Shown here one piece after another: positions 619 through 51,664 of a DNA stretch of 52,411 nt (positions within the stretch are counted from its first letter, which is position 1; every line of letters starts with the position of its first letter). The DNA is from Candidatus Hydrogenedens sp. (GTDB lineage: Bacteria > Hydrogenedentota > Hydrogenedentia > Hydrogenedentales > Hydrogenedentaceae), in assembly GCA_049968235.1 (NCBI GenBank), contig JBMFRC010000023.1, forward strand, positions 1-52,411, written 5' to 3'. Both the position numbers and the translations under genes were made by a program. Under the pieces are notes generated by a model. That model saw only the letters and a list, made by a program, of their open reading frames with translations, made no database searches and was not told the DNA's origin.

Positions 619-2799
619 ATGAATAGTATTAACAATAATTATGAAGCACTTTTCAAGAAAGCCGAAGAATTTCGTAATTCTTTGGGTTATGGAGAAAAAA
701 TACGTATTCGCGTAGGGTCTGCTACATGTGAACATGCGGCGGGTTCTATGATTGTATATGAAGAGTTTCAAAAACATATTGATTCATCCGGAAGGCAGGA
801 TATTATTTTAGAAAAAACAGGATGCACAGGCAGGTGTAGTTGCGAACCGATAGTTGGTGTTTTTGTTCCGGGCAAATTACCTATCAAATATCAGTTGGTA
901 AGACGAGATACTGTTCATAAAATTTTTATGGAACATATCGTTGGCGGAAAAATTGTTCAGGAAAATCTTTTGGATAAAACTCCGGATTCCTGCAAGTATC
1001 ATGTTTTAATGTGTGATGGTTCTGGTTGTGGCGGAGCATTAGACGGGGGATTACGATTCCAATTTGAAATGAAACTTGCGGAATCAGGAATGAAACCTGA
1101 TGAGGTATGGCTGACCCATATTGGTTGTTTGGGATTTTGCACAATAAAGGATAAAAAAGAACAAACTGTTCAGGTAATGGTTAGACCTGATAATATTATT
1201 TATAAGATAAAAACAATTAAAGATATTGATGATATTATAGAGAATCACTTCAAAAAAGGTAAAGCGGTTCAGAGATTAATTGCAAAAGAAAGACCTATAA
1301 GTCAGAGATTTTATAATCTTTATGGTGATGTGGCGTTTTTTAATAAACAAACACGGATAGCCCTTAGAAATGCAGGTGTAGTAAATCCGGAGAATATATA
1401 TGATTACATCCACTACAAAGGTTTTTTAGCATTAAAGGATGTTTTAGAGAAAAATGACCCTGAATGGGTAGTGAAGCAGGTAACAGAATCGAAATTGAGA
1501 GGGAGAGGTGGAGGAGGTTTCTCCACAGGTATGAAGTGGGCAAGTGCACGGAAAGCAAAGGAAAAAATTCGATATATTATTTGTAATGCAGATGAAGGTG
1601 ACCCGGGCGCATTTATGGACCGTAGTATGTTAGAATCTGACCCATTTAGTATTGTGGAAGGAATGATAATCGGTGGTTTTGCTATTGGAGCACAAAAAGG
1701 TTATTTTTATATTCGAGCGGAGTATCCTTTAGCAGTAGAACGGATAAATCATGCTATTGAAGAGTGTAGAAAACATAATCTTTTGGGACAAAATATATTA
1801 GGTAGTGATTTTAGTTTTGACCTTGAAATTCGTTTAGGTGCCGGAGCCTTTGTATGTGGGGAAGAAACTGCTTTAATCCACTCTATAGAAGGGGAACGGG
1901 GACAACCTCGTGTTAGACCACCTTATCCTACGGAAAGCGGATTATGGGGAAAACCGACTGTAATTAATAATGTAGAAACCTTTGCAAATATTCCTCCGAT
2001 AATAGTTTATGGACCTGAATGGTTTGCACAGATAGGAACAAGTCGAAGTGGAGGCACAAAAGTATTTGCACTTGCAGGAAAAATCCAGAGAACAGGTCTT
2101 GTAGAGGTTCCAATGGGCACAACATTGAGAAATATAGTATATGGGATTGGTGGAGGCCCCGCAGGAGGTAAGAAAGCAAAAGCTATACAGACCGGTGGAC
2201 CTGCAGGTGGTTGTATACCTGAAAAATATTTTGATACACCGGTAGATTTTGATACATTGGGAAAATTAGGTTCCATCATGGGTAGTGGTGGAATGATTGT
2301 ATTGGACGAAGATGATTGTATGGTTGATGTAGCAAAATTCTATATGGAATTTTGTCAGGATGAATCCTGTGGTAAATGCACTCCCTGTAGAGAAGGGACC
2401 AAACGAATATTAGAGATTCTTGCCCGAATTACAGAAGGAAAAGGCACAGAAGAAGATTTGGAAAAGTTAGAGCGACTGGCGAATCTGGTAAAGAAATCAT
2501 CTTTATGCGGGTTGGGTAGAGCTGCTCCCAACCCTGTATTAAGTACTTTAACTTATTTTAAGGATGAATACTTATCTCATGTCAGAGATAAGAAATGCCC
2601 ATCAAAGAAGTGTCGGTCATTGATTCACTATGAAATAGACCCGGAGAAATGTGTAGGTTGTACCATGTGTTCTAAAAATTGTCCTGTGTCATGTATTGCA
2701 GGAGAGCGAAAAGGAGTCCATGTGATTGATACAGCAAGATGTATCAAATGTGGTAGATGTTTTGAAGTTTGTAGATTTAAAGCCGTTAAAAAACTTTAA
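619..2799 (+). CDS. hydB: [FeFe]-hydrogenase NADH-binding flavoprotein subunit (HydB/HndC; NuoF-like 51 kDa module with two N-terminal thioredoxin-like [2Fe-2S] domains and a C-terminal 2x[4Fe-4S] ferredoxin)
   Basis: GRGGGGF FMN/NADH-binding glycine-rich motif. N-terminal Cys clusters (CEH...CTGRCSCEP; CDGSGCGG...GCLGFC). C-terminal CVGCTMCSKNCP and CIKCGRCFEVC. NuoF-like core between these. Confidence 0.88.
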   Translation: MNSINNNYEALFKKAEEFRNSLGYGEKIRIRVGSATCEHAAGSMIVYEEFQKHIDSSGRQDIILEKTGCTGRCSCEPIVGVFVPGKLPIKYQLVRRDTVHKIFMEHIVGGKIVQENLLDKTPDSCKYHVLMCDGSGCGGALDGGLRFQFEMKLAESGMKPDEVWLTHIGCLGFCTIKDKKEQTVQVMVRPDNIIYKIKTIKDIDDIIENHFKKGKAVQRLIAKERPISQRFYNLYGDVAFFNKQTRIALRNAGVVNPENIYDYIHYKGFLALKDVLEKNDPEWVVKQVTESKLRGRGGGGFSTGMKWASARKAKEKIRYIICNADEGDPGAFMDRSMLESDPFSIVEGMIIGGFAIGAQKGYFYIRAEYPLAVERINHAIEECRKHNLLGQNILGSDFSFDLEIRLGAGAFVCGEETALIHSIEGERGQPRVRPPYPTESGLWGKPTVINNVETFANIPPIIVYGPEWFAQIGTSRSGGTKVFALAGKIQRTGLVEVPMGTTLRNIVYGIGGGPAGGKKAKAIQTGGPAGGCIPEKYFDTPVDFDTLGKLGSIMGSGGMIVLDEDDCMVDVAKFYMEFCQDESCGKCTPCREGTKRILEILARITEGKGTEEDLEKLERLANLVKKSSLCGLGRAAPNPVLSTLTYFKDEYLSHVRDKKCPSKKCRSLIHYEIDPEKCVGCTMCSKNCPVSCIAGERKGVHVIDTARCIKCGRCFEVCRFKAVKKL

Positions 2800-2824
2800 T
2801 TCAGAATAAATCAAGGAATTATAT

Positions 2825-4603
2825 ATGAATAAAAACAAGCCAACAGAAGTAAAAATGGTAAATATTAAGATTGATGATAGAGAAGTTTCGGTTCCCGAAG
2901 GAACAACAATAATGGAAGCGGCAGAGAAAATAGGTATTCAGATACCCCGCCTCTGTTATCATCCTGATTTGAGTTTGCAGGGTTCCTGTCGGGTATGTAT
3001 TGTTGAAGTAAAAGGTTTTGATTTTTACATGACATCCTGTAGCACAAAGGTATGGGAAGGAATGGAAATTAAGACGAACAGTCCTGCAATTCGTCAAGCG
3101 AGACGGGATATAGTTGAATTACTTTTAGACAATCATCCACAGGATTGCCAAACATGTGAACGGGATGGGAATTGTGAACTTCAGAATTTAGCCTATTCAT
3201 TAGGAGTTCGAGAAAGATTATTTTCAGGAGAGAGAAAACATTTTCCAGAAGATAAGAAAAGTAAATCTGTGGTTCGTATTCCTGATAAATGTATTTTATG
3301 CGGGCGTTGTGTTCGCGTATGTGCGGAAGTGCAGGGTGTCTATAATTTAAGTCAGCATGGGAGAGGTTTTCACACTCAGGTTATGCCTGCCCATGGTTCT
3401 GCTATGGATGAATCTGTATGTATTCAATGTGGACAATGTATTATGGTATGTCCTGTTGCGGCGTTTATAGAGCAATCCCATACAGAGAAGGTATGGAATG
3501 CATTGGCAGACCCGAAAAAACATGTTGTTATACAAACAGCACCATCCATTCGTGCAGCAATAGGGGAGGGCTTTGGAATGGAGCCGGGAACTCCTGCCAC
3601 CGGAAAAATGGTAACTGCACTACGATTACTCGGTTTTGATGCTATCTTTGATACCAATTTTGGAGCAGATTTGACAATCGTCGAAGAAGCCACAGAATTT
3701 TTGAAAAGGATACAGAAAAAAGAACGACTTCCACTCCTAACCAGTTGTTCGCCGGGCTGGATAAACTTTTTAGAGAAGTTTTACCCAGAAATGATTCCAT
3801 TTGCTTCTACCTGTAGAAGTCCTATGAGTATGACTTCTGTTTTGTTAAAAACTTACTATGCGGAAAAGATTAAAAAAGACCCGAAAGATATTTATGTTGT
3901 GGCAGTTATGCCCTGTGTAGCGAAGAAGTTTGAAGCAGATAGGGATGAACATAAAATGCCTGATGAGATACCTTACACCGATGCCGTATTAACCACTCGT
4001 GAATTAATCTGGATGATTAAATGTTATGGTATTGACTTAAAAGATTTGCCTGATAGCGAATTTGACAATCCCTTAGGAGAATCCAGTGGAGCGGCAGATA
4101 TTTTTGGTACAACGGGAGGAGTTATGGAGGCAGCGTTACGGATGGCTTGTGAAGTTCTTACGGGATTACCACCGGAGAAGATGGAATTTACAGATGTCCG
4201 TGCTGTAGAAGGTCTGAGAGAAACTGAGGTTAAATTTGGTAATTATAGGATTAATGTTGCGGTTTCCAATGGTTTAACAAATGCCAAAACAATTCTAAAC
4301 AGAATCATATCGGGGGAGAAACAATATCATATCGTGGAAATTATGGCATGTCCGGGTGGATGTATAGGAGGAGGAGGACAGCCATATCCGCCGGAGGGTT
4401 ATCATTTCCTTGATCCGGAATTGTTAGCCAAAAGGGCACAGGCTTTGTATAAGATTGACAGTGATAAGAAAATAAGAATTTCAAACCATAATCCATCAAT
4501 TCAACAGATATACAGAGAATTTTTGGGAGCTCCAGGAAGTGAAAGGGCTCACCAATTGTTACATACACACTATCACCCCAGACTACCGAGAGGAATACGA
4601 TAA
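2825..4603 (+). CDS. hydA: [FeFe]-hydrogenase catalytic subunit (M3-type: N-terminal [2Fe-2S] ferredoxin, His-ligated [4Fe-4S], 2x[4Fe-4S], H-cluster domain)
   Basis: All three H-cluster signature motifs are present: L1 TSCSPGW, L2 MPCVAKKFEADR, L3 EIMACPGGCIGGGGQP. Accessory clusters CILCGRCVRVC and CIQCGQCIMVCP are also present. The N-terminal domain is NuoG-like, with CYHPDL...CRVC. Confidence 0.93.
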   Translation: MNKNKPTEVKMVNIKIDDREVSVPEGTTIMEAAEKIGIQIPRLCYHPDLSLQGSCRVCIVEVKGFDFYMTSCSTKVWEGMEIKTNSPAIRQARRDIVELLLDNHPQDCQTCERDGNCELQNLAYSLGVRERLFSGERKHFPEDKKSKSVVRIPDKCILCGRCVRVCAEVQGVYNLSQHGRGFHTQVMPAHGSAMDESVCIQCGQCIMVCPVAAFIEQSHTEKVWNALADPKKHVVIQTAPSIRAAIGEGFGMEPGTPATGKMVTALRLLGFDAIFDTNFGADLTIVEEATEFLKRIQKKERLPLLTSCSPGWINFLEKFYPEMIPFASTCRSPMSMTSVLLKTYYAEKIKKDPKDIYVVAVMPCVAKKFEADRDEHKMPDEIPYTDAVLTTRELIWMIKCYGIDLKDLPDSEFDNPLGESSGAADIFGTTGGVMEAALRMACEVLTGLPPEKMEFTDVRAVEGLRETEVKFGNYRINVAVSNGLTNAKTILNRIISGEKQYHIVEIMACPGGCIGGGGQPYPPEGYHFLDPELLAKRAQALYKIDSDKKIRISNHNPSIQQIYREFLGAPGSERAHQLLHTHYHPRLPRGIR

Positions 4604-26638: not shown

Positions 26639-28750
26639 ATGAAATTAACATCTAAAATAGTCGTTATTTTACTTATATTTTGGATTTTTTTATTGTCTGG
26701 ATATATTTTCCTCTATGATTGGGTTGTTAAACCTACATTATCACAATTTGAAAGAGAACTGGCTATTAATGAATTAGAACGGTTTCAGAAATCTTTTGAA
26801 AAAGACTTATTGTATTTAAATAGAACTTGTGCAGATTATTCTTGGTGGGATGATACTTATGAATTTGTTATCAACAAAAATGAGAATTTCAAACGAATTA
26901 ATCTTTTGCCCCAAACATATAAAGAAAATAATATAAACATGATTTTAATAATTAATGCATTGGGAGAGGTTGTGTATGGTGAGTGGTATAACCTGGATAA
27001 GAAACAAAAAGAAAAATTACCCACAGAGTTTTCCATGCCTAAAATTGCTCTTACCCATCCTTTATTAACCTTTGATAATCCGAAATCTGGAAAATATGGG
27101 ATTATTTCAACAAATTATGGTAATGTGGCAGTGGCATCCAACCCAATACTAAAAAGTAACTTAGAGGGGGAACCACGAGGTGTATTTATCATGGGGAAAT
27201 TATTAGATGATGATTTTTGGGAAAATATAAAGAACCAAATCATGTTGGATATAAGTATTTTTCCTTATATAGAAAAAGACAAATTAATACGCAATGCTTT
27301 GAATTATCCAATAAACGAACGAAAAACAATACAAATCTATGAAAGTAAAGATGGCAAACTTTTTTTATGGGATATAATTAATGATATATATGGACACCCA
27401 ATAATACTAATACGGTTAACACATAATCAAAATATTCTTTCTTTAAGTGAAAGTATGCAAATACAAGGAGTTACGGGTTTTATTTTAATAATGGTCTTTG
27501 GAATTATTTCACTCTGGATTGCTATTAAAAAACAAATTATTTCACCTTTGCAAGATTTAACCCAAAATATAAGAAATTCTACATATCGTGAATCTATAAC
27601 TTTTCTGCCTACAATAGAAAAAAACGATGAAATTGCTTTGCTTATTGTTCATTTTAATCGAATGGCTTATAAAATTAACAAACTGTTAGAAGAAAAATCT
27701 AAATTGGTCAAGGAAATTGCTGAACGCGAGCGGTATCTGAGATTTATTATTAATTCTGTCCCTTGTGTAATAGTTGAATTTGATAATAACGGTACTATAA
27801 GAACAACTAACTCGGCAATTAAAGAAATAGTAGGACTTTCCCCCCAAGAGGTAGAAAACAGAAATATTGGCGATATTTTTTCTACAAAAAGTATTTATGA
27901 TTTTCTTAAACAGATAAAAGAAAATAAAGAAAAGACAAATCATTTTGAATTTGAGGAAAGTGTGTGCATCAATGATAAGAAGAAATATCTCCATATTTAT
28001 TTTAATAAGAATAAAAGAAATGGGGAGGTATTTTGTATCGGTGTAATATGGGATATAACAGTTTTGAGAGAAATACAGGAGAAATATAATGAACAAAAAC
28101 AATTGGCTATTTTGGGTGAAGCAAGTGCAAGTTTAGCCCACGAATTACGAAATATGATAACTGCTATTCAGAGTGGTTTTGAACTTATGCGAGTAGAAAA
28201 AAATGTAAGGCAAAGAGAAGAAATTACCAGCGAGTTATATGTGTCCATTGCACGATTAGAGGAAACATTAAGAAAATTGTTGGAATTTACAAAAAAATAT
28301 AAGTTACAAAAAATAGAAGTTTCTATTAAAGAGTTGATTGAAGAACAATTTAAACAATGTATAATACAATATAATAATGCATCTTTTATTGAATTTAACA
28401 TAAAAGGAGATGCTATTATAAAAGTGGATGTAAATCTCTTTTCAAGAGCAATCATAAATATCTTAAATAATAGTATTGAGTCTATATCTAATCAAGGGAA
28501 AATATATGTAGAAATCTATGATAAAAACGATTCACACTATATAGAAATAAAAGATAATGGAATAGGTATAGAGAAAGAGAATCTGGGAAAGATTGGAAAA
28601 CCTTTTTTTACGACAAAAGCAAAGGGAACAGGATTAGGATTGACAATAACAAAGAAAATTATTGAGAGTCATGGAGGGAAAATAGAAATACAGAGTGAGA
28701 AAGGTGTTGGAACAAATGTTTTAATTATATTACCCTTAGAAAAAGGATAG
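26639..28750 (+). CDS. Sensor histidine kinase (two TM helices flanking a large extracytoplasmic sensing domain, HAMP, PAS, HisKA, HATPase_c)
   Basis: TM1 residues about 7-27, a roughly 250-aa periplasmic domain, and TM2 around GFILIMVFGIISLWIA. H-box LAHELRNMITAI. G1/G2 boxes DNGIGI and GTGLGL. Confidence 0.85.
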   Translation: MKLTSKIVVILLIFWIFLLSGYIFLYDWVVKPTLSQFERELAINELERFQKSFEKDLLYLNRTCADYSWWDDTYEFVINKNENFKRINLLPQTYKENNINMILIINALGEVVYGEWYNLDKKQKEKLPTEFSMPKIALTHPLLTFDNPKSGKYGIISTNYGNVAVASNPILKSNLEGEPRGVFIMGKLLDDDFWENIKNQIMLDISIFPYIEKDKLIRNALNYPINERKTIQIYESKDGKLFLWDIINDIYGHPIILIRLTHNQNILSLSESMQIQGVTGFILIMVFGIISLWIAIKKQIISPLQDLTQNIRNSTYRESITFLPTIEKNDEIALLIVHFNRMAYKINKLLEEKSKLVKEIAERERYLRFIINSVPCVIVEFDNNGTIRTTNSAIKEIVGLSPQEVENRNIGDIFSTKSIYDFLKQIKENKEKTNHFEFEESVCINDKKKYLHIYFNKNKRNGEVFCIGVIWDITVLREIQEKYNEQKQLAILGEASASLAHELRNMITAIQSGFELMRVEKNVRQREEITSELYVSIARLEETLRKLLEFTKKYKLQKIEVSIKELIEEQFKQCIIQYNNASFIEFNIKGDAIIKVDVNLFSRAIINILNNSIESISNQGKIYVEIYDKNDSHYIEIKDNGIGIEKENLGKIGKPFFTTKAKGTGLGLTITKKIIESHGGKIEIQSEKGVGTNVLIILPLEKG

Positions 28751-28754
28751 ATTT

Positions 28755-30137
28755 ATGGAAGGAAGAGTATTTGTTGTAGATGATGAAAAATTAATTCGAT
28801 GGAATATTATTGAGAAACTTAATCAGATGGGATTTATAACAGAAGAGGCGGGGAATGTCGCAGAAGCAAAGCAAATTGTGCATAAAAAAATGTTAGATAT
28901 TGCCATCGTTGATTTAAGACTTCCTGATGGAAATGGTATGGATATATTAAAAGAAATAACCACAAAACAACCTGGTGTGCCTGTGATTATGATTACGGCT
29001 TATTCAAGTGTATCTAATGCTGTTGAAGCCATGAAGAATGGTGCCTTTGATTATATTAGCAAACCTTTTGAAATTGATGAACTTATACTTAGAATCCAGA
29101 GGGCGATAGAACAATCTCATTTACGAAACTCTATTCAGGCGGGATTACAACAAAGTAAACGTATTTTTAATCTTGACCATATTATCGGTAAAAGCCCAAA
29201 AATTCAAGAGGTAAAACAAATTATAAAAAAAGTAGCGGAATCTCCGAGTACTACAATTTTACTTTTAGGAGAAAGTGGAACAGGTAAAGATATAGCCGGT
29301 AGGGTAATACATTACGAATCAGAAAGGGCTATATATCCGTTTATGAATATTACCTGCACGGCATTACCGGAAAATCTATTAGAGTCAGAATTGTTTGGGT
29401 ATGAACAAGGTTCTTTTACAGGGGCTGACCATCTTAAAAAAGGATTGTTTGAACTTGCCAATTATGGGACAGTGTTCATGGATGAAATAGGGGATACGCC
29501 GTTATCTGTTCAATCAAAGATTCTTCGAGTGCTTGAGGAAAAAGCATTTAAAAGGATTGGGGGGACTACGGATATTCATGTGGATGTCCGTGTAATTGCA
29601 GCAACAAATAAGGACCTTGAGGAAATGGTACAAGCAGGTACTTTTCGTGAAGATTTATATTATAGATTAAATGTCGTTCCAATTGTTTTACCACCACTAA
29701 GAGAAAGATATGAAGATATACCTTTATTAGCGGAACATTTTTTGGATTTATTTAATAAAGAATTTAGAAGAAATCGCAAAAGTTTTTCAGATGAAGCAAT
29801 GAATAAATTACTTTCTTACCACTGGCCTGGGAATGTTCGAGAACTTAGAAATGTCATAGAACGGGCTGTGTTATTGGGCAAAGATGAGATAATACAGGGA
29901 GATGAAATTATACTGGGACGGGTAAGTTTCGGAGGAGTAAGGACTATGAATAGTGATTTTGTATTATTACCTCCATCTGGATGCTCTCTCGATGATGTTG
30001 AAAAGTCATTAATTCGTCAGGCTTTAGAAAGGACAAACTGGAATTTAACACGTGCAGGTGCTTTGCTAAATATATCAAGAGACCAGGTCCGATATAAAGC
30101 AGAGAAATATGGGTTAAGACAAGAAAACAATAAGTAA
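28755..30137 (+). CDS. Sigma-54-dependent response regulator (NtrC family: receiver, AAA+ sigma54-interaction domain, Fis-type HTH)
   Basis: Receiver Asp in IAIVDLRLPDGNG. Walker A GESGTGKD. GAFTGA-equivalent GSFTGA. C-terminal HTH ...LTRAGALLNISRDQV... Confidence 0.9.
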   Translation: MEGRVFVVDDEKLIRWNIIEKLNQMGFITEEAGNVAEAKQIVHKKMLDIAIVDLRLPDGNGMDILKEITTKQPGVPVIMITAYSSVSNAVEAMKNGAFDYISKPFEIDELILRIQRAIEQSHLRNSIQAGLQQSKRIFNLDHIIGKSPKIQEVKQIIKKVAESPSTTILLLGESGTGKDIAGRVIHYESERAIYPFMNITCTALPENLLESELFGYEQGSFTGADHLKKGLFELANYGTVFMDEIGDTPLSVQSKILRVLEEKAFKRIGGTTDIHVDVRVIAATNKDLEEMVQAGTFREDLYYRLNVVPIVLPPLRERYEDIPLLAEHFLDLFNKEFRRNRKSFSDEAMNKLLSYHWPGNVRELRNVIERAVLLGKDEIIQGDEIILGRVSFGGVRTMNSDFVLLPPSGCSLDDVEKSLIRQALERTNWNLTRAGALLNISRDQVRYKAEKYGLRQENNK

Positions 30138-30195: not shown

Positions 30196-33100
30196 TTAGT
30201 TTTTGCCTACACAATAATTATCTTCACTTTCACCCGGACATATATGATACCCATTACTATTAAAGAATTGTATTAACCTTAATAATTCTGTAAGAGATAT
30301 TGTCCAATCTTGTGGATTATAATCACTTCCATGCGGTTTACATGACTTATCACCATTATAACCTGGGACGTATCCATCTTCTGAACTTTCAGAAGGCATA
30401 GCACAATGATATCCCCCTGAATTAAAGAATTGTATAACCCGCAATAATTCACCTAATTCAATAATATGATTTCCGTTTTGGTCGGCAGAATGCTCAGCAG
30501 GGATTTCACCTTCTGTTGTACCTTCTCCTTCTGTTACACCTTCACCTTCCATAGTGCCTTCAGTTATTCCCTCAGGTGTGCCTTCTGTTGTGCCTTCCGG
30601 AGTACCTTCTTGTGAACCTTCGACAGTGCCTTCCGGTGCACCTTCAGGAGTACCTTCGATAGTACCTTCATTTACTCCCTCAGGTGTGCCTTCTGAAATA
30701 CCTTCTCCCTCCGGGATAATCTCAACAAAGTTTGCAGTGATATTTCTATTTTTTGTCATATTTAATTGAAGGATTGGAGAATTAGCATCTTTTGTTTGTA
30801 TATCCCCTGACCAATTCTGGAAAGCCCATCCTTCTGCTGGGATTGCAGTAATTGTAACCGTTTCTCCATCCCAATATGGATATGTTCCGGGAGATGGGTC
30901 GGTTGTTCCTGAACCGCTTACAAATACCGTTAATTTCCATTGTGTGGTCATCAATTGTAATTGTCCGCGGATTTCTCCATTGGGATAATTTTGAGAAGTT
31001 ATCAGGAAGTAATACAGTCCCATGGCTATTTCAGCTGCCTGGCTATTTTCAATTTCAGAATAGAATGAAAGATTGGGAGGATTTCCTATATCGAAAACAA
31101 TGGGACCATTTGTTCCTGGTAAACCTTTATTAATAGTCATTCCTGTAGGGTTCAATACTGAGTGTGAACCCGATAAAGATATGGTATAGTTATCGCTACC
31201 GGGGACAGGTTGCAATACTCCAAATGCCTGTCCGTATGCTCCTGTGGATATTGGTGGAACAATCTGGAATCCTGTCATAGGATTCGCTGTAATGAAGATG
31301 CCTTCAGGAGGAATTGGTCTTAGAACGGTAACTTTTGCAATAGCAGATGCAGTTGTTTTCACTGAATCCGTTGCTGTGCACCAATATTCTCCTGCAGAGT
31401 CGTAGGTTACATCCGGAATATTTAGAACATTTGAAGATGAGCCAACGGGAATTCCATCTTTATACCATTGGTATGTAATAGTTCCTAATCCTCCCGCTGT
31501 TGTTACTTGAAAATGTAAATCACCTCCAACAAATAAATATGTATCTGCTGGATTTTGTATAAAACTGAGAGCATCCACCACTGTAAGAGTTGCAATGTTT
31601 GATGTGATAGTTTCAAAATTGTCCTGTACCTCGCAGAAATAGTTCCCTGCTGTTTCCGTCTGAACATTGGAAAGAACTAATTGCGGAGAGTTTACACCTA
31701 AGTTGATACTAAGACCACCTGCTAATTTCTTATACCAGCGGTATTCAACATTTCCTAGACCTCCGTCAATCACTACAGAGAATGTATGCGTTGTTCCTTT
31801 GTAAACTGTGGCAGATTGAGGATGTTGAATAAAGGACATCCAATTGGCAACTTGTAAAACAGCAGGAGCACTTGTTGCACCAGCATTTTGGTCAGAGACA
31901 AAACATGTGTATGTCCCCGAATCAGAAGGTTGCAAGTTCTCTAAAACTAAGACAGAGTCAGTATATGGGATATCTACACCATTTTTCCTCCATTGGTATC
32001 TATACGGTGGATATCCACCCGATATTGCGACCTCAAAAGTATGGCTTTCACCGGTGTGTTTTAATGCTCCTTGAGGTTGAATATCGAAGTTAAACGGAGG
32101 GAAAACTTGCAATGTTACTTGTTCTGAAGTAAGCATTTCTCTTGCATCAGTTACGATACACCAATATGTACCTTCATCGGTTTCTTGTAATGGATATAAA
32201 AGAAATGTAGCGGAGTTTGGTCCGACATATTCTCCGTCATGAACCCATTGATAATGCACTCCACCTAAACCACCTGTTATTCCAATAGTGAACGTAAAAT
32301 CGTAGCCAAGAATACCTGAACCGGAAACAGGTTGCTGGACAATTTGCATGTGTTCTGCCACTTCAAGGAAAGCTGGAGTTGATTGAATAGTATAAACATC
32401 ATCATAAATAACACAGGTATAATAGCCCATATTTTCAATTTGAGCATCTTCTATTGTCAAAGTAGAACCTTCTTCACCTTCGATAGTCTCACCATTAAAT
32501 TTCCATAAATATCGAAGTGTTCCATTAGGTTCACCTGCTATCACAGGGATAAATGTAAATGTTTCACCTATATATACACCCCCTCCCTGCAAGGGTTGTT
32601 CAAATCGTATACGATTTAGTATCGTTATTTCTGCTGACTGTGAAGCAACTTGTTCTGTACCACTGGTAACAACACAGCGATATGAACCGCCATCTGATAA
32701 CTGGATAGGGTTAAATGATATTGTTTTTTGTGTTTCACCTGATAAATCAGCCCAATTTGCACCATCCCACTTTTGCCATTGGTAAGTAGGAAGGTTATTT
32801 CCTCCACGAACATCAATGGACATGGTGTGACTGTTTTCTCCGGGAACAAGATTTTGTGCTCCAACAGGCTGTTCTGTAATCACTAATGGTGTATATTGCA
32901 CCTCTAATTTTGCAGGGGCTGAACGGCGTGTCCATAGGCTATCGCATATTGTTACTGTAAAGTAACGAGGTTTCGTTGTAGGTAGGGGATAAGCAATCGT
33001 TAAGTCTTCTGAATAAACAGGACTTCCAATAGGAGAAAAGTCATCAATCTTTATTTCTTCCCATTTATATACCTGCGGTATTCCATTATTCTCTCCACCT

Positions 33101-34164
33101 ACCTGGTCAATAGAGAAAGTAACTGGCGTTCCTGATGTTACTGTTTGTGATTCAGGTTGAGCAGTTATTTGTAAAGGTGGATTTTGAATGGATTCATTGA
33201 CCATCCATGCCTGACGATTTCCACTTGCCAATACATATGAATCATAATTGTTCCGAGAGTCATGGTTTAAATTGCCTGTAGATGCTAATAGTTCAGGATG
33301 GCAACGGAATTTTGAGCAATTAAAATTACCAACAAATTCTTCAACGGTCCGGTCAATTTCTGAACCATAAATCTTAATTGTAATCTCTGTTCCATTTGCG
33401 TTAACAGTAACTTCAATATCATCTGTCTTTAATTCACTTAAAATACCCGGCAAAACATCTCTCAACACAGTATAAATAATAACTCGGAATACACTTTTCA
33501 AATGGTCTATCCCTGTAGCCTCACCTACAGTCATGTAACCTGCAATTAAATTGACCATAGCATTTTTAAATAATGGACTTTGCTGTTCTAATAATTGCCA
33601 GAGGGTAGGAACGCCTTCAAAATTACTAACAAATTGACTCACACATAGAGTTGTAATACCCAGTTTTACACATACATCTTTGTCACCTGTCGTTATTGTG
33701 GTACTACCTGTTAATCCATAGGCTTTTACCTGAACATTTCGAATAGTAATTTGTAAAGTTTCTACGACTGCTCTGTTATAAGCAAAGTCATTTCGTATTG
33801 TCTGAATTTCGCTGGGGTTGAGGTTTCCTAAAACGCGTGTCATATCCCCATTTAAGATAGCACCTAACAAATCAAAATGGTCATTATCATTTATACCATT
33901 GCAATCATTATCTGCATTGGAAAAATAAGGACTTGTTTGACACTGAACCTGTCTCCATGCTCCGGGCTGTGGTTGCCCATATTCATCAATGTAATCATAC
34001 CAGGTAGGCAAAAAATCTGCCAAGGCACTGTCTAATGTGTTAAAAATAAAATCAATATCGTATTGTTCCTGGAAACACTGAGAAAATGCAGGTGAAACTG
34101 TCAAAAATAACAGAATTAAACTTAAAATACTTATAATTGCCTTGTAGTGATAATTTTTTATCAT
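30196..34164 (-). CDS. Giant secreted multidomain protein: signal peptide, unknown N-domain, about six Ig-like (I-set type) domains, InlB-type B-repeat (Listeria-Bacteroides repeat) domain, (T/P)EG tandem-repeat linker, duplicated dockerin/EF-hand-like C-terminal module
   Basis: Signal peptide MIKNYHYKAIISILSLILLFLTVSPAFSQ. Six occurrences of the Ig I-set core GxYxCxVxD (GSYRCVVTS, GYYTCVIYD, GTYWCIVTD, GTYTCFVSD, GNYFCEVQD, GEYWCTATD), each preceded by a W about 35-40 aa upstream. WKLTVFVSGSGTTDP...GWAFQNWSGD matches the InlB B-repeat. The (T/P)EG tandem-repeat linker lies at 30505-30711. Two C-terminal segments: DQNGNHIIELGELLRVIQFF and NPQDWTISLTELLRLIQFF. Confidence 0.7.
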   Translation of the reverse strand: MIKNYHYKAIISILSLILLFLTVSPAFSQCFQEQYDIDFIFNTLDSALADFLPTWYDYIDEYGQPQPGAWRQVQCQTSPYFSNADNDCNGINDNDHFDLLGAILNGDMTRVLGNLNPSEIQTIRNDFAYNRAVVETLQITIRNVQVKAYGLTGSTTITTGDKDVCVKLGITTLCVSQFVSNFEGVPTLWQLLEQQSPLFKNAMVNLIAGYMTVGEATGIDHLKSVFRVIIYTVLRDVLPGILSELKTDDIEVTVNANGTEITIKIYGSEIDRTVEEFVGNFNCSKFRCHPELLASTGNLNHDSRNNYDSYVLASGNRQAWMVNESIQNPPLQITAQPESQTVTSGTPVTFSIDQVGGENNGIPQVYKWEEIKIDDFSPIGSPVYSEDLTIAYPLPTTKPRYFTVTICDSLWTRRSAPAKLEVQYTPLVITEQPVGAQNLVPGENSHTMSIDVRGGNNLPTYQWQKWDGANWADLSGETQKTISFNPIQLSDGGSYRCVVTSGTEQVASQSAEITILNRIRFEQPLQGGGVYIGETFTFIPVIAGEPNGTLRYLWKFNGETIEGEEGSTLTIEDAQIENMGYYTCVIYDDVYTIQSTPAFLEVAEHMQIVQQPVSGSGILGYDFTFTIGITGGLGGVHYQWVHDGEYVGPNSATFLLYPLQETDEGTYWCIVTDAREMLTSEQVTLQVFPPFNFDIQPQGALKHTGESHTFEVAISGGYPPYRYQWRKNGVDIPYTDSVLVLENLQPSDSGTYTCFVSDQNAGATSAPAVLQVANWMSFIQHPQSATVYKGTTHTFSVVIDGGLGNVEYRWYKKLAGGLSINLGVNSPQLVLSNVQTETAGNYFCEVQDNFETITSNIATLTVVDALSFIQNPADTYLFVGGDLHFQVTTAGGLGTITYQWYKDGIPVGSSSNVLNIPDVTYDSAGEYWCTATDSVKTTASAIAKVTVLRPIPPEGIFITANPMTGFQIVPPISTGAYGQAFGVLQPVPGSDNYTISLSGSHSVLNPTGMTINKGLPGTNGPIVFDIGNPPNLSFYSEIENSQAAEIAMGLYYFLITSQNYPNGEIRGQLQLMTTQWKLTVFVSGSGTTDPSPGTYPYWDGETVTITAIPAEGWAFQNWSGDIQTKDANSPILQLNMTKNRNITANFVEIIPEGEGISEGTPEGVNEGTIEGTPEGAPEGTVEGSQEGTPEGTTEGTPEGITEGTMEGEGVTEGEGTTEGEIPAEHSADQNGNHIIELGELLRVIQFFNSGGYHCAMPSESSEDGYVPGYNGDKSCKPHGSDYNPQDWTISLTELLRLIQFFNSNGYHICPGESEDNYCVGKN
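30505..30711 (-). repeat. In-frame tandem 12-nt-periodic repeat encoding (T/P)EG-x units inside the giant protein gene
   Basis: About 17 imperfect copies of ccttc-NNNN-gtNcc on the + strand, encoding EGTPEGVNEGTIEGTPEGAPEGTVEG... on the minus strand. Confidence 0.8.
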
Positions 34165-34333: not shown

Positions 34334-34409
<76 letters not shown>

Positions 34410-48100: not shown

Positions 48101-51100
48101 ATGTCTATGTTTGAAAAAAAAATCTTTTGTGCTTGCTTCATTATTATCTTCTTTCTTTTAGATTATCAAGTTTATTCATTAAATTTGTTCAAAAAAGAAG
48201 ATAGAAAATCCCCTATTTATTCCTTTTCAGATTATACGACTCCTGTTATATGGGGAAAGCCATTGGAATATGGGTCATTAAAAATACTTGCCATTGCTCC
48301 TAATTACTGTTTTCTGGATTTTATAGAATTAGAAAAACGATTGGATTGTTCTGTCCAATTAATAACAACGGAAGATGCTCTCCATGTAGGTTGTGACCCG
48401 CTATGGGGTATATGGTGTAGGGAAGAACAAAAAAAGGAAAACATTATCAGACAGATTCGGGATAGTATAGAAAAAAAGTGGGATTTAATTATTATTGCAG
48501 GTATCGTGTTGGATATACTTCCAAAGGAAATTTATGAATCACTCATTACGAAAGTATCAAAAGGATGTGGTTTATTTATAATTCCGGCTATACCTTTAAT
48601 CCCCTCTTTACCTCACCCCATAGAGGAATTTATTAATACCCTTGAACCGAATACAGAACCTTCAGAACGATGGAAAAACTTATTTTCAGGTGGAAATGTT
48701 CGTGTAAACGATACAACGAATAGTATTAAAGTTATATGTGCAGAATTTAAAAAGGGGAGAATTGTTTACTCCCCGAACTATTTAAGCGGTGTAATGAATC
48801 ATGCTCTATTACCTGAAAAAGCAGTTATAGAAGAGATGAGTTATTTTGAAAATGCCTGGGCCGGTATTATTTCATTGATTTTATGGAGTAGCCAGATATC
48901 AGAGGATTGTAAAATAGTAAATATATCTGATGCTAAACCTGCTGGTCCTGTTGAAGAAGAAATTCCTCCCGAATTGCCGATAATGGCTATTAAAAATTTA
49001 AATCAATCTCTATTGGGTCCCGGAACTTATCCTTTTCTTATTGAAATAAAAAGAAACGATAAACAAAAAATTGATGAAATAAAAGTTCAAATACGTAGGG
49101 AAAATGAACTTTTTTCATATCAGCAATATGAATTTAAGCCTAATATCCAGAAAAAAGGACGAATCTTTACACAGGTAGAATTGCCGATTGGTGCTGGGAA
49201 CTATTTTTTTGATATATGGCTTCTCCGAAAGAAGAAAGTATTGGATTTTTTTACCAAACAAATTACTTTTAATTCCTGGCCTGATATTGTATCTGTAGAA
49301 CCAAATAAAAATTTTGTTTTTCCCAATGATTCTATTACTCTTAAAATTAATGTTTCCTCCAATATAATGGAAAGTAGAGAAGGAACAATTATTATTCAAG
49401 GAATTGATAATTATCCATATTTGAAAAATACAGAGGGTAATTTGGTTTGTGAGCAAAGCCAACCTATTACAGGGAAAGGGGGAGAGGTTCGAATACCACT
49501 AAACTTTGCAGACCTTTCCGGAAATTACTTAAAAATTAATATATGGGGAGCCCCTATGCGATTAACTTCATTAGGGGTAAATTATTCTACTTTGTTTTCT
49601 TACCGTTCTCTATATATCCCTATTCAAAGGAAAATATTTAAAAGAGGGTGGAAAGATATTGTTCAACTGAATAATATTCGTGAATATAATCAATTACAAA
49701 TAGCAAAATTTTTAATGGATAATTTTAATTGTGGAAACTATCTTTCTTTAGACCAGTATAAAATGCCGGGCGTTACAAAACTTTACCAGTCCTGTATTGT
49801 TCAAATGGCAGAGGAGACAGTTTCCAAAGCAACAAATAAAATCCAAAGAGAACCCTGTATAAATGATGAAAATTATCTGGATAAAGTTAAAAATAATTTA
49901 AATCAGGCGGTTACCTCTACGATTATTCCAACACCTTTCGCTATTTCATTAGGCATGAATAATTGTCTGGTTCAAACCGAAGAATGGGTTTGCTTTTGTG
50001 AGAATTGCATAAGCAAATTTATGCAGTTTCGGCATTTCAATGAATACTTAGATACAATACCTGAATTAGCTAATAAATTTGAACACGAGAATATTGAATT
50101 GTTAAGAGAGGATATTATAAACAAGAATTTTCCTGCTTATTTATCTTTTTATAAAAAGTTTATGGAAAATAGTTTTATAAATTTTGAAATAGATATAAAA
50201 AACAAATTAAAGACTTCTTTTTCTGATATTCCTATGGGATTTCGCTATTACAGTGATAAGAATACGATAAAAGATATTGATTGGATTGAATATATTAATT
50301 CTATGGATTGGGTTGTTATAGAACCAGAAGATTTTGCATATTCACTTGTCTCTTATATTAAATCAAAGGGAAAATCATTTTGGGTGTGTATAGATTTTGC
50401 CAATCCACAACAAACACCTCAGGGATTAATATGGAACTACTGGAATGCGATATTTAATCAAGCAAATGGAGTATGGCTGAAAAATATAAATGGAGATATG
50501 TATAGTTCATTGCCTATTAAATTATTCGATAAATATGGAAGTATAACACCCGAAATAAGTTCACTTTTTCATATATCTGAAAAGATTGGAGAAGGGATGA
50601 AAAATTTCATCTCTCAATTAAAACCTGATTTTAACGAGGAAGTAGGTATTTATTTGTCGACGGAAAATCTCTTTTTAACAAACAATATTCCAGAATTTAG
50701 TCATAAAAATTCTTTCACTTACTTTACGCGATTGTTAAATGGATATGGGATAAACCCAATTGTTATTACAAAAGAGGATATTTTACGAAGTAAAAATATG
50801 AAAGTTTTAATTCTACCCTGTTGTCTGTGGCTATCGGAAGAAGAGATAGAAAATTTATCCGAATTTTTAATTAATGGGACAATTATTGCAGATATTTCTC
50901 CTGGAATTATAAATAACGCAGATTTAACGAAGGAGTTACAGGATATCCTTAGTAGTCAGGATATTAATCAAGAGAAGATTAGGAATGATAATGTATATTT
51001 ATTAAATAAAAGCCTATCTAAAAAAATAGAAAATGAACCCTTAGAAAATGTGAAAAAGGAAATAAGGTTTATACAGGATATTTTAATAAGAAATAAGGTT

Positions 51101-51664
51101 CACAGTCCTTACTTGAATGAGAATGAATGGATAGATGGAAAATTTTATTCATTTAACAATAAAAGAATTATAGTCTGGTTACCTAATCTTACGCCTGTTA
51201 TTGTGAATAACGAATGTAAAATTAATTCGGAATTATTTAAATACAATAGTAAATTATGGGATGTGTTTAATGATAAAAGAATTAAAGCAGGAAAGAATAT
51301 ATCTTTAAATATACATAATTTACAGCCGTTATTTATTTGTTCTAATCCATATTTTTTAAAAGAGATGAAACTTACTGCTCCTGATGTCATAAAATCGAGT
51401 AGTCATCTGCCTGTTCAAATAGAATTAAAACAAAAAGGGAAAGAAAAAACATTTCTTGACCATTGGGTAAATATCGAATTAAAGGCAAAAGGTAATAAAA
51501 AGGAAATTACGATTAACTCTCAGATTATACAAACCAATCAAGAAGGTAAAGGGGAAACTTATATTTCTATCCCTAAAAATCAGCCTTCAGGGTGGTATGT
51601 CATAGTAGCAAAAGAAATAATAACTGGAACTACAATTGAAAAGGTGATAAAAATAAATAATTAG
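48101..51664 (+). CDS. Large (1187 aa) secreted or membrane-anchored hypothetical protein
   Basis: N-terminal hydrophobic signal/anchor. No recognised catalytic motif. Asn/Ile/Lys-rich. Confidence 0.6.
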   Translation: MSMFEKKIFCACFIIIFFLLDYQVYSLNLFKKEDRKSPIYSFSDYTTPVIWGKPLEYGSLKILAIAPNYCFLDFIELEKRLDCSVQLITTEDALHVGCDPLWGIWCREEQKKENIIRQIRDSIEKKWDLIIIAGIVLDILPKEIYESLITKVSKGCGLFIIPAIPLIPSLPHPIEEFINTLEPNTEPSERWKNLFSGGNVRVNDTTNSIKVICAEFKKGRIVYSPNYLSGVMNHALLPEKAVIEEMSYFENAWAGIISLILWSSQISEDCKIVNISDAKPAGPVEEEIPPELPIMAIKNLNQSLLGPGTYPFLIEIKRNDKQKIDEIKVQIRRENELFSYQQYEFKPNIQKKGRIFTQVELPIGAGNYFFDIWLLRKKKVLDFFTKQITFNSWPDIVSVEPNKNFVFPNDSITLKINVSSNIMESREGTIIIQGIDNYPYLKNTEGNLVCEQSQPITGKGGEVRIPLNFADLSGNYLKINIWGAPMRLTSLGVNYSTLFSYRSLYIPIQRKIFKRGWKDIVQLNNIREYNQLQIAKFLMDNFNCGNYLSLDQYKMPGVTKLYQSCIVQMAEETVSKATNKIQREPCINDENYLDKVKNNLNQAVTSTIIPTPFAISLGMNNCLVQTEEWVCFCENCISKFMQFRHFNEYLDTIPELANKFEHENIELLREDIINKNFPAYLSFYKKFMENSFINFEIDIKNKLKTSFSDIPMGFRYYSDKNTIKDIDWIEYINSMDWVVIEPEDFAYSLVSYIKSKGKSFWVCIDFANPQQTPQGLIWNYWNAIFNQANGVWLKNINGDMYSSLPIKLFDKYGSITPEISSLFHISEKIGEGMKNFISQLKPDFNEEVGIYLSTENLFLTNNIPEFSHKNSFTYFTRLLNGYGINPIVITKEDILRSKNMKVLILPCCLWLSEEEIENLSEFLINGTIIADISPGIINNADLTKELQDILSSQDINQEKIRNDNVYLLNKSLSKKIENEPLENVKKEIRFIQDILIRNKVHSPYLNENEWIDGKFYSFNNKRIIVWLPNLTPVIVNNECKINSELFKYNSKLWDVFNDKRIKAGKNISLNIHNLQPLFICSNPYFLKEMKLTAPDVIKSSSHLPVQIELKQKGKEKTFLDHWVNIELKAKGNKKEITINSQIIQTNQEGKGETYISIPKNQPSGWYVIVAKEIITGTTIEKVIKINN

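Follow-up and report, generated by a model that had tools for sequence, protein, structure and literature searches.

A duplicated dockerin- and EF-hand-like C-terminal module on a Candidatus Hydrogenedens surface protein, a putative docking handle for many secreted proteins of Hydrogenedentota

Type I dockerins (Pfam ID PF00404; PDB IDs 2vn5_B, 4dh2_D, and 2ccl_B) are small, usually C-terminal domains composed of a duplicated calcium loop with an exit helix, and within one genome, a linker joins them to many different secreted proteins. The EF-hands of calmodulin and troponin C (Pfam families EF-hand_1, EF-hand_5, EF-hand_6, and EF-hand_7) have a helix behind a 12-residue loop of the type D-x-[DN]-x-[DN]-G-x-[ILV]-x-x-x-E, and the C-terminal domain (CTD) of the type IX secretion system (T9SS) of Bacteroidota is a lineage-restricted domain of about 100 amino acids (aa) found on dozens of unrelated secreted proteins. 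A C-terminal domain on many unrelated passengers is the classic signature of cargo tags. Here, we describe a module that resembles each of these systems in part and is located at the C-terminus of a 1322-aa protein encoded by a stretch of 52,411 nucleotides (nt) from Candidatus Hydrogenedens sp. (GenBank assembly GCA_049968235.1, contig JBMFRC010000023.1), which was analysed as a whole and is called the window below. Hydrogenedentota are uncultured yet common in anaerobic digesters and sediments, and to our knowledge nothing is known of how they build their cell surface.

The module consists of two copies of a unit with a calcium-type loop, a 12-residue helix carrying the motif ELLRxIQFFN, and a GGYHC...EDGY beta-hairpin. 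Its halves share 55% identity (pairwise E value of 3e-12), which marks it, like dockerins, as an internal duplication. The AlphaFold2 (AF2) structure model, built from a 66-sequence alignment, is compact and confident, with a predicted local distance difference test score (pLDDT) of 94.1 and a predicted template modelling score (pTM) of 0.84, and its helices span residues 20-31 and 74-85, with a hairpin behind each of them. According to DSSP on this model, coil and not helix precedes both loops, leaving the module without the entering helix of an EF-hand. The modelled arrangement is an F-hand as in dockerins, not the calmodulin-type helix-loop-helix, and the closest solved folds of the model appear to be dockerins.

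Loop 1 is a canonical EF-hand-type loop, and DQNGNHIIELGEL at aa 1228 is the sole match in the protein to an EF-hand loop pattern modelled on PROSITE PS00018. The profile of 294 family members reads D97-x-[ND]93-x-[DN]97-[GN]-x-[IV]99-[SNED]-L-[ST]-E100 for loop 1, with conservation at positions 1, 3, 5, 8, and 12, and D92-Y90-N67-P76-Q75-D81-W98-x-I88-x-L96-x-E100 for loop 2. Four Cys do not vary among 49 full-length proteins carrying the module (carriers), nor do the EDG and SDY motifs and both ELLRxIQxxN helices. We infer that Ca2+ is most likely bound, by loop 1 at the least, and that two disulfides probably brace the module.

The original prediction had described this C-terminus as a duplicated dockerin- or EF-hand-like module, with a Cys-containing Gly/Tyr stretch after each segment. 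Both segments are present as quoted, and the stretch behind each helix is the hairpin described above. The assignment to the known families holds less well. The window module gives no match to Dockerin_1 even at an E value of ≤10, reaches 13.3 bits for EF-hand_6 against a cutoff of 25, and has by itself no relative among PDB sequences. Such scores had been named, together with disorder of the tail, as what might refute the idea; they are indeed sub-threshold, whereas the confident fold speaks against disorder. A search of the family profile against PDB sequences matched the loops of calmodulin and troponin C with borderline E values of 8e-4 to 0.03, and no dockerin. When the 66 aligned members were scanned individually at an E value of ≤1, EF-hand_6 was matched in 46/66 (best E value of 4e-8) and Dockerin_1 in 15/66 (best E value of 4.4e-6). 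Many family members pass or approach the Pfam EF-hand cutoffs, and the multi-copy protein P0121 lies above them with 49.9 bits.

Compared with type I dockerins, the repeat unit is about 50 aa instead of about 22 aa long, because the conserved GGYHC...EDGYxPG beta-hairpin is added after each helix, and the module contains four Cys that do not vary. In loop 1, position 12 is occupied by Glu as in EF-hands, and not by Asp as in dockerins; loop 2 is a 13-residue variant, and neither loop follows the dockerin pattern D-x-[ND]-x-D-G...D12. The helix ELLRxIQFFN is near-invariant throughout the phylum, whereas dockerin contact residues vary between species. Furthermore, the passengers of the module are mostly binding and adhesin repeats rather than glycoside hydrolases, and no cohesin was found in the window, among the frequent families of the carriers, or beside the carriers. 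EF-hands (PF13405, PF00036, and PS00018) differ in having an entering helix, and the module differs from them in its non-canonical loop 2 and its extracytoplasmic, Cys-containing context. The module resembles a hybrid of dockerin and EF-hand, a variant of both themes that belongs to neither Pfam family.

The C-terminal module recurs as a large family, a fact that the original prediction had missed. Searches started from a 105-aa query and yielded 133 close relatives at 52-76% identity, mostly from metagenome-assembled genomes (MAGs) of Candidatus Hydrogenedentes with several per genome, many of the relatives being contig-end fragments. In the GTDB species representatives, at least 583 module loci were found, and the locus-level analyses of carriers cover the best 80 of these, which come from 17 assemblies with GC contents from 0.35 to 0.65 and have module identities of 55-83%. 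Within these 80 loci, at least 23 carrier open reading frames (ORFs) are located in assembly CAZLII01 and at least 15 in JAKQEQ01. The profile was also searched exhaustively against 1.84 billion representatives, with 3035 clusters (50% identity) matched at an E value of ≤1e-3, of which 1483 reach an E value of ≤1e-30, and the clusters are almost all from Hydrogenedentota. The module was not found in the viral contigs searched. No Pfam or NCBIfam model matched it, and no description of it was found in the literature on dockerin, EF-hand, or surface proteins of Hydrogenedentota. A module that tags dozens of secreted proteins per genome, with about 3000 clusters and no Pfam or NCBIfam model, is a clear gap in the domain catalogues. 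By its distribution, the module is probably key to surface protein display in Hydrogenedentota.

In nearly all carriers, a tail of only 19-28 aa follows the second helix motif, placing the module at the extreme C-terminus, and in the carrier consensus, it is usually preceded by an EG-rich linker, as in the window protein. The passengers are unrelated to each other and include Flg_new_2, PASTA, Bact_surface_Ig-like, CHRD, GLUG, LRR, P_proprotein (the proprotein-convertase P domain), Ig_3, and beta-helix structures; among the 49 carriers, Flg_new_2 is present in 14 and CHRD in 6. An uncharged, signal-peptide-like N-terminal stretch is present in 49/58 full-length carriers. TrAA12 matches in 16/49 carriers were rejected as a low-complexity artefact of the EG linker, and the same holds for matches to FliH and to serine-rich NCBIfam models. 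Stand-alone modules of about 100 aa on long contigs were rejected as well, being tail fragments of frameshifted long genes.

Several database records of the family deserve a remark. In locus L081 (2718-8321; GCA_017880035.1, JAEDZT010000482.1), a GLUG/PASTA carrier is split into about 10 consecutive same-strand gene calls, which is probably an assembly frameshift error of the kind that explains many 'short' family matches. The JGI records P0018, P0036, and P0070 name module fragments 'ribosome-associated protein YbcJ (S4-like RNA binding protein)', a propagating mis-annotation that stems from a spurious weak S4_2 match on the ELLRVIQFF helix. Six module-rich GTDB MAGs (CAZZMK01, CAZLII01, CAYXPO01, CAZJTZ01, CAYMLC01, and CAYYRW01) bear 'uncultured Nitrospirales' titles (binchicken), and their loci include L003, L005-L009, and L011-L014. 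Carriers in these MAGs are very similar to those in MAGs bearing the Hydrogenedens label (L029 versus L055), and the Nitrospirales label looks doubtful.

We propose, with moderate confidence, that the module is a dockerin-like handle by which many secreted proteins dock at a common site on the envelope. After Sec export of the 1322-aa protein, the module would fold in an oxidising, Ca2+-containing compartment and would bind one conserved envelope receptor, either a protein or a glycan. The bound module would tether the passenger, consisting of an N-terminal head, an Ig stalk, a CHRD domain, and a B-repeat, to the cell surface, and the flexible, acidic (EGx)n spacer would project this passenger outward. 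The other carriers, of which a genome may have dozens with unrelated binding and enzyme domains, would be tethered likewise. If this holds true, the surface proteome of a whole phylum could be defined from sequence alone, and the dockerin principle would extend beyond cellulosomes to a diderm-like candidate phylum. The module would then also be a concrete bait for its receptor, and the two might form a new orthogonal Ca2+-dependent protein-assembly pair.

Several observations weigh against a docking function. No receptor was found, and Pfam matches Cohesin neither in the ORFs of the window nor among the families seen most often in the 49 carriers. When all ORFs of the best 80 loci were clustered, no gene recurred beside the carriers. 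The window module remains below every Pfam EF-hand or dockerin threshold, and its loop 2 has no canonical ligands at positions 1 and 3. Finally, the near-universal C-terminal position would be equally expected of a sorting tag. The sole large cluster of non-carrier ORFs in the 80 loci was rejected, as it contains antisense frames of the conserved module DNA, and an 11-member neighbour family (e.g., L026:8870-9943) has no Pfam match and is present in 5 loci only.

A small number of family members show the module in other positions. In P0194, it lies directly behind the signal peptide and is followed by the EG linker and LRRs, whereas P0124 and P0131 are membrane-anchored proteins with three tandem modules, and P0126 is a secreted protein of 243 aa with two. 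Internal modules are found in P0121, P0122, and P0123, with four copies in P0121; the source of P0121 and P0123 is a Hydrogenedentes MAG (locus-tag prefix PLI09_) that has ordinary carriers too. Among the best 150 of the 3035 representatives, about a dozen have at least two matched stretches, some of which may be split single modules.

The internal or terminal modules are adjoined in at least nine proteins by a recurring beta-rich domain of about 120 aa, which we call the LPxGW domain (Table 1); besides P0121, P0122, and P0123, it occurs in P0219, P0156, P0125, P0214, and P0243. It has no Pfam match, its profile finds nothing significant among PDB sequences, and a word-indexed homologue search gave zero matches. 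Neither the window nor the best 80 loci contain the domain. It could be a companion of the module or even a candidate for a receptor-type, cohesin-equivalent domain. A tentative and rather speculative extension of the docking proposal is a phylum-wide, non-cohesin surface display system, in which dozens of adhesin- or enzyme-like clients per cell would be held at the envelope by the Ca2+-dependent, disulfide-braced handle, the LPxGW domain would be its receptor or adaptor, and some proteins would be scaffoldin-like.

The best-surviving alternative is that the module acts as a C-terminal secretion or sorting tag that is recognised, and possibly cleaved, by a dedicated machinery, in analogy to the T9SS CTD, sortase, or exosortase systems. 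It would readily account for the extreme C-terminal position in almost all of the roughly 3000 representatives and for the unrelated passengers on the dozens of carriers of one genome. However, the carriers already have Sec-type signals at the N-terminus, and the module shows neither a hydrophobic or transmembrane segment nor a basic tail, the window protein ending in ...EDNYCVGKN. In fold, sequence, and placement, it departs from T9SS CTDs, LPXTG, and PEP-CTERM signals, and no NCBIfam sorting-domain model matches it. The T9SS CTD is a strictly C-terminal beta-sandwich, whereas the module is helical with EF-type loops and is also found at the N-terminus, in tandem, and internally (P0194, P0124, P0131, and P0121-P0123), which fits an autonomous binding domain better than an obligately terminal sorting peptide. 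We consider a sorting tag unlikely.

Somewhat less probable still is a Ca2+-dependent self-association or matrix domain that cross-links secreted proteins without a dedicated receptor protein, where modules would bind each other or an extracellular polysaccharide and form a surface coat or a biofilm matrix. The helices, nearly invariant in all carriers, are compatible with homotypic contacts, and proteins with several modules (four copies in P0121, three in P0124 and P0131, and two in P0126) might serve as cross-linkers; the failure to find a separate receptor gene also agrees with it. In contrast, dockerins, apparently the closest folds, act heterotypically, and the multi-copy proteins are a small minority.

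The idea of an ordinary Ig adhesin that lies on a tRNA-linked island and has, by chance, an EF-hand-like motif in its disordered tail can draw on the adjacent tRNA gene, the raised overall GC content, and the sub-threshold Pfam scores, but it is effectively refuted by the confidently folded tail, the 1483 family representatives at an E value of ≤1e-30, and the native character of the locus detailed below.

The proposed docking handle sits on a protein that otherwise belongs among the familiar modular surface proteins of bacteria, with ordinary Ig, CHRD, and B-repeat parts (Table 1). From its sequence, it is predicted to be a Sec-exported surface protein of the adhesin type. A giant secreted protein had been predicted here, and its coordinates proved exact; the N-terminus is signal-peptide-like by inspection. 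The gene is a complete coding sequence (CDS) with a stop codon and a Shine-Dalgarno motif (AGGAG) 5' of the ATG. Its orthologs are 1321 aa long in L001 (Ca. Hydrogenedens terephthalaticus) and 1327 aa long in L002, a second MAG, whereas an exact look-up of the window protein itself in the contig collection gave no entry. The low-complexity (T/P)EG linker is present as had been quoted.

Table 1. Features of the giant gene and its product, the neighbouring tRNA gene, and occurrences of the LPxGW domain in other proteins of the module family
Feature	Position	Strand	Basis or remark
Modular secreted surface protein, complete CDS	30196..34164	-	ORF listing, Shine-Dalgarno, orthologs
Signal peptide, aa 1-28 (MIKNYHYKAIISILSLILLFLTVSPAFS then QC)	34081..34164	-	Sec/signal peptidase I type by inspection of the sequence
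N-terminal head, aa 29-332, 6 Cys, D/N-rich loops	33169..34080	-	No Pfam/NCBIfam match
Seven tandem Ig-like repeats, aa 333-949, Ig_3/I-set class, first degenerate	31318..33168	-	Pfam, repeat alignment, PDB relatives
CHRD domain, aa 962-1069	30958..31281	-	Pfam PF07452
Flg_new_2 (divergent InlB B-repeat) domain, aa 1078-1148	30721..30933	-	Pfam PF18998
Acidic (E-G-x)n low-complexity linker, aa 1149-1220	30505..30720	-	Sequence
C-terminal double F-hand (dockerin-like) module, aa 1223-1322	30199..30498	-	Cys 1254, 1275, 1309, 1318
Loop 1, aa 1228-1239, DQNGNHIIELGE, canonical 12-residue EF-hand-type	30448..30483	-	Regular expression, family profile, PDB matches
Loop 2, aa 1281-1293, DYNPQDWTISLTE, conserved non-canonical 13-residue variant	30286..30324	-	Family profile
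tRNA-Ala(CGC), upstream neighbour, same strand as giant gene	34334..34409	-	ARAGORN; conserved position in L001
LPxGW domain in P0121	aa 1022-1159, 2133-2269
LPxGW domain in P0122	aa 654-781, 973-1134
LPxGW domain in P0123	aa 404-530, 846-967, 1098-1233

The Ig-like repeats form the stalk of the protein. The Pfam scan matched them to Ig_3 (Pfam ID PF13927) in six stretches with an E value of 1.4e-46 (157.3 bits; cutoff of 30) and to I-set (Pfam ID PF07679) with an E value of 4.4e-34 (116.8 bits; cutoff of 23.7). Six repeats with the classical Ig core had been predicted; these are canonical, and the repeat alignment adds a seventh, degenerate copy at the N-terminal end, with the C-strand YxW and the F-strand GxYxC being found in repeats 2 to 7. 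Each repeat has exactly one Cys (positions 407, 497, 584, 669, 754, 844, and 929), and the classical B-F disulfide is therefore absent. In the PDB, the nearest relatives of the repeats are an "Ig-like domain protein" of prokaryotic or viral origin (PDB ID 9ncf_S; E value of 9.5e-28) and a putative tail protein (PDB ID 9c2d_S; E value of 4.5e-21), both of which share a YQWxKxG...GSYTCVV signature with the window repeats, where it takes the more general form YQWxKxG...GxYxCxV. Eukaryotic matches follow with titin at 1.5e-17 and with Robo, CEA, DCC, and DSCAM down to 1e-13. Judged by these matches, the repeats truly belong to the I-set/Ig_3 class and not to PKD or Big, the assignment that had been named as a refutation, and they represent a subtype already seen in prokaryotes and phages. 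They differ from those prokaryotic and phage proteins in having one Cys each and in forming the stalk of a carrier of the Hydrogenedentota module.

Downstream of the stalk, the CHRD domain (E value of 1.7e-12; 48.7 bits; cutoff of 24.1) is matched over profile positions 4-117 of 117 and had been missed by the original prediction. The Listeria-Bacteroides-type B-repeat, which it had named, was recovered as Flg_new_2 above the Pfam threshold (E value of 2.1e-13; 50.5 bits; cutoff of 23.6).

For the N-terminal head, a word-indexed homologue search gave zero matches, and the AF2 model from a 4-sequence alignment is unusable with a pLDDT of 50. The head is about 92% identical in L001 and L002, 40% identical in P0253, and 28-29% identical in P0191 and P0152. 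It contains two D/N-rich stretches that resemble calcium loops, ADNDCNGINDNDHFDLL (aa 84-100, 33865-33915) and TGNLNHDSRNNYDSY (aa 296-310, 33235-33279) on the minus strand, and these stretches are kept in P0253 and P0152.

The tRNA gene had been taken as a possible island insertion point. The tRNA-Ala(CGC) is indeed located 170 nt upstream of the start codon of the giant gene, whereas the island reading did not hold. L001 and L002 are collinear with the window across the giant gene, with the collinearity extending upstream over folE and the tRNA gene in L001 and downstream over the sigma-54 regulator gene in L002, and over 1153 aa, the L001 ortholog shares about 91% identity with the window protein. 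No integrase, transposase, or other mobility gene was found among the neighbours in the window, and the 3' end of the tRNA-Ala gene is not repeated anywhere in the window as an att-like repeat would be. The comparison of base composition and codon usage with the flanks, which had been suggested as a check, gave no atypical values: the GC content at third codon positions (GC3) is 0.251 versus 0.245 ± 0.032, and the relative synonymous codon usage (RSCU) distance, 0.051, ranks among the lowest of the window. The overall GC content of 0.388 lies above the window average because of the amino acid composition. The neighbours are housekeeping genes, namely folE, folK, and folB and those for a short-chain dehydrogenase/reductase, HtrA, a prepilin peptidase, an iron-containing alcohol dehydrogenase, shikimate-pathway enzymes, an [FeFe]-hydrogenase, and a CHASE4 kinase together with the sigma-54 regulator. 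The giant gene is best explained as native to the chromosome of a Candidatus Hydrogenedens-like bacterium.

The genes for the CHASE4-PAS histidine kinase and the sigma-54-dependent response regulator (26639-30137, plus strand) converge on the giant gene. The facing stop codons are 58 nt apart, with no terminator-like hairpin detected between them, and a promoter and terminator scan gave counts no higher than in shuffled sequence. Elsewhere in the window, an ORF of 1187 aa (48101-51664, plus strand) has a hydrophobic, signal-like N-terminus and no Pfam match at an E value of ≤0.01, and it is predicted to encode another large secreted protein. At 619-4603 (plus strand), a gene for a NuoF-like flavoprotein (Complex1_51K) adjoins that for the [FeFe]-hydrogenase large subunit, a pair that fits an electron-bifurcating-type hydrogenase and the Hydrogenedens affiliation.

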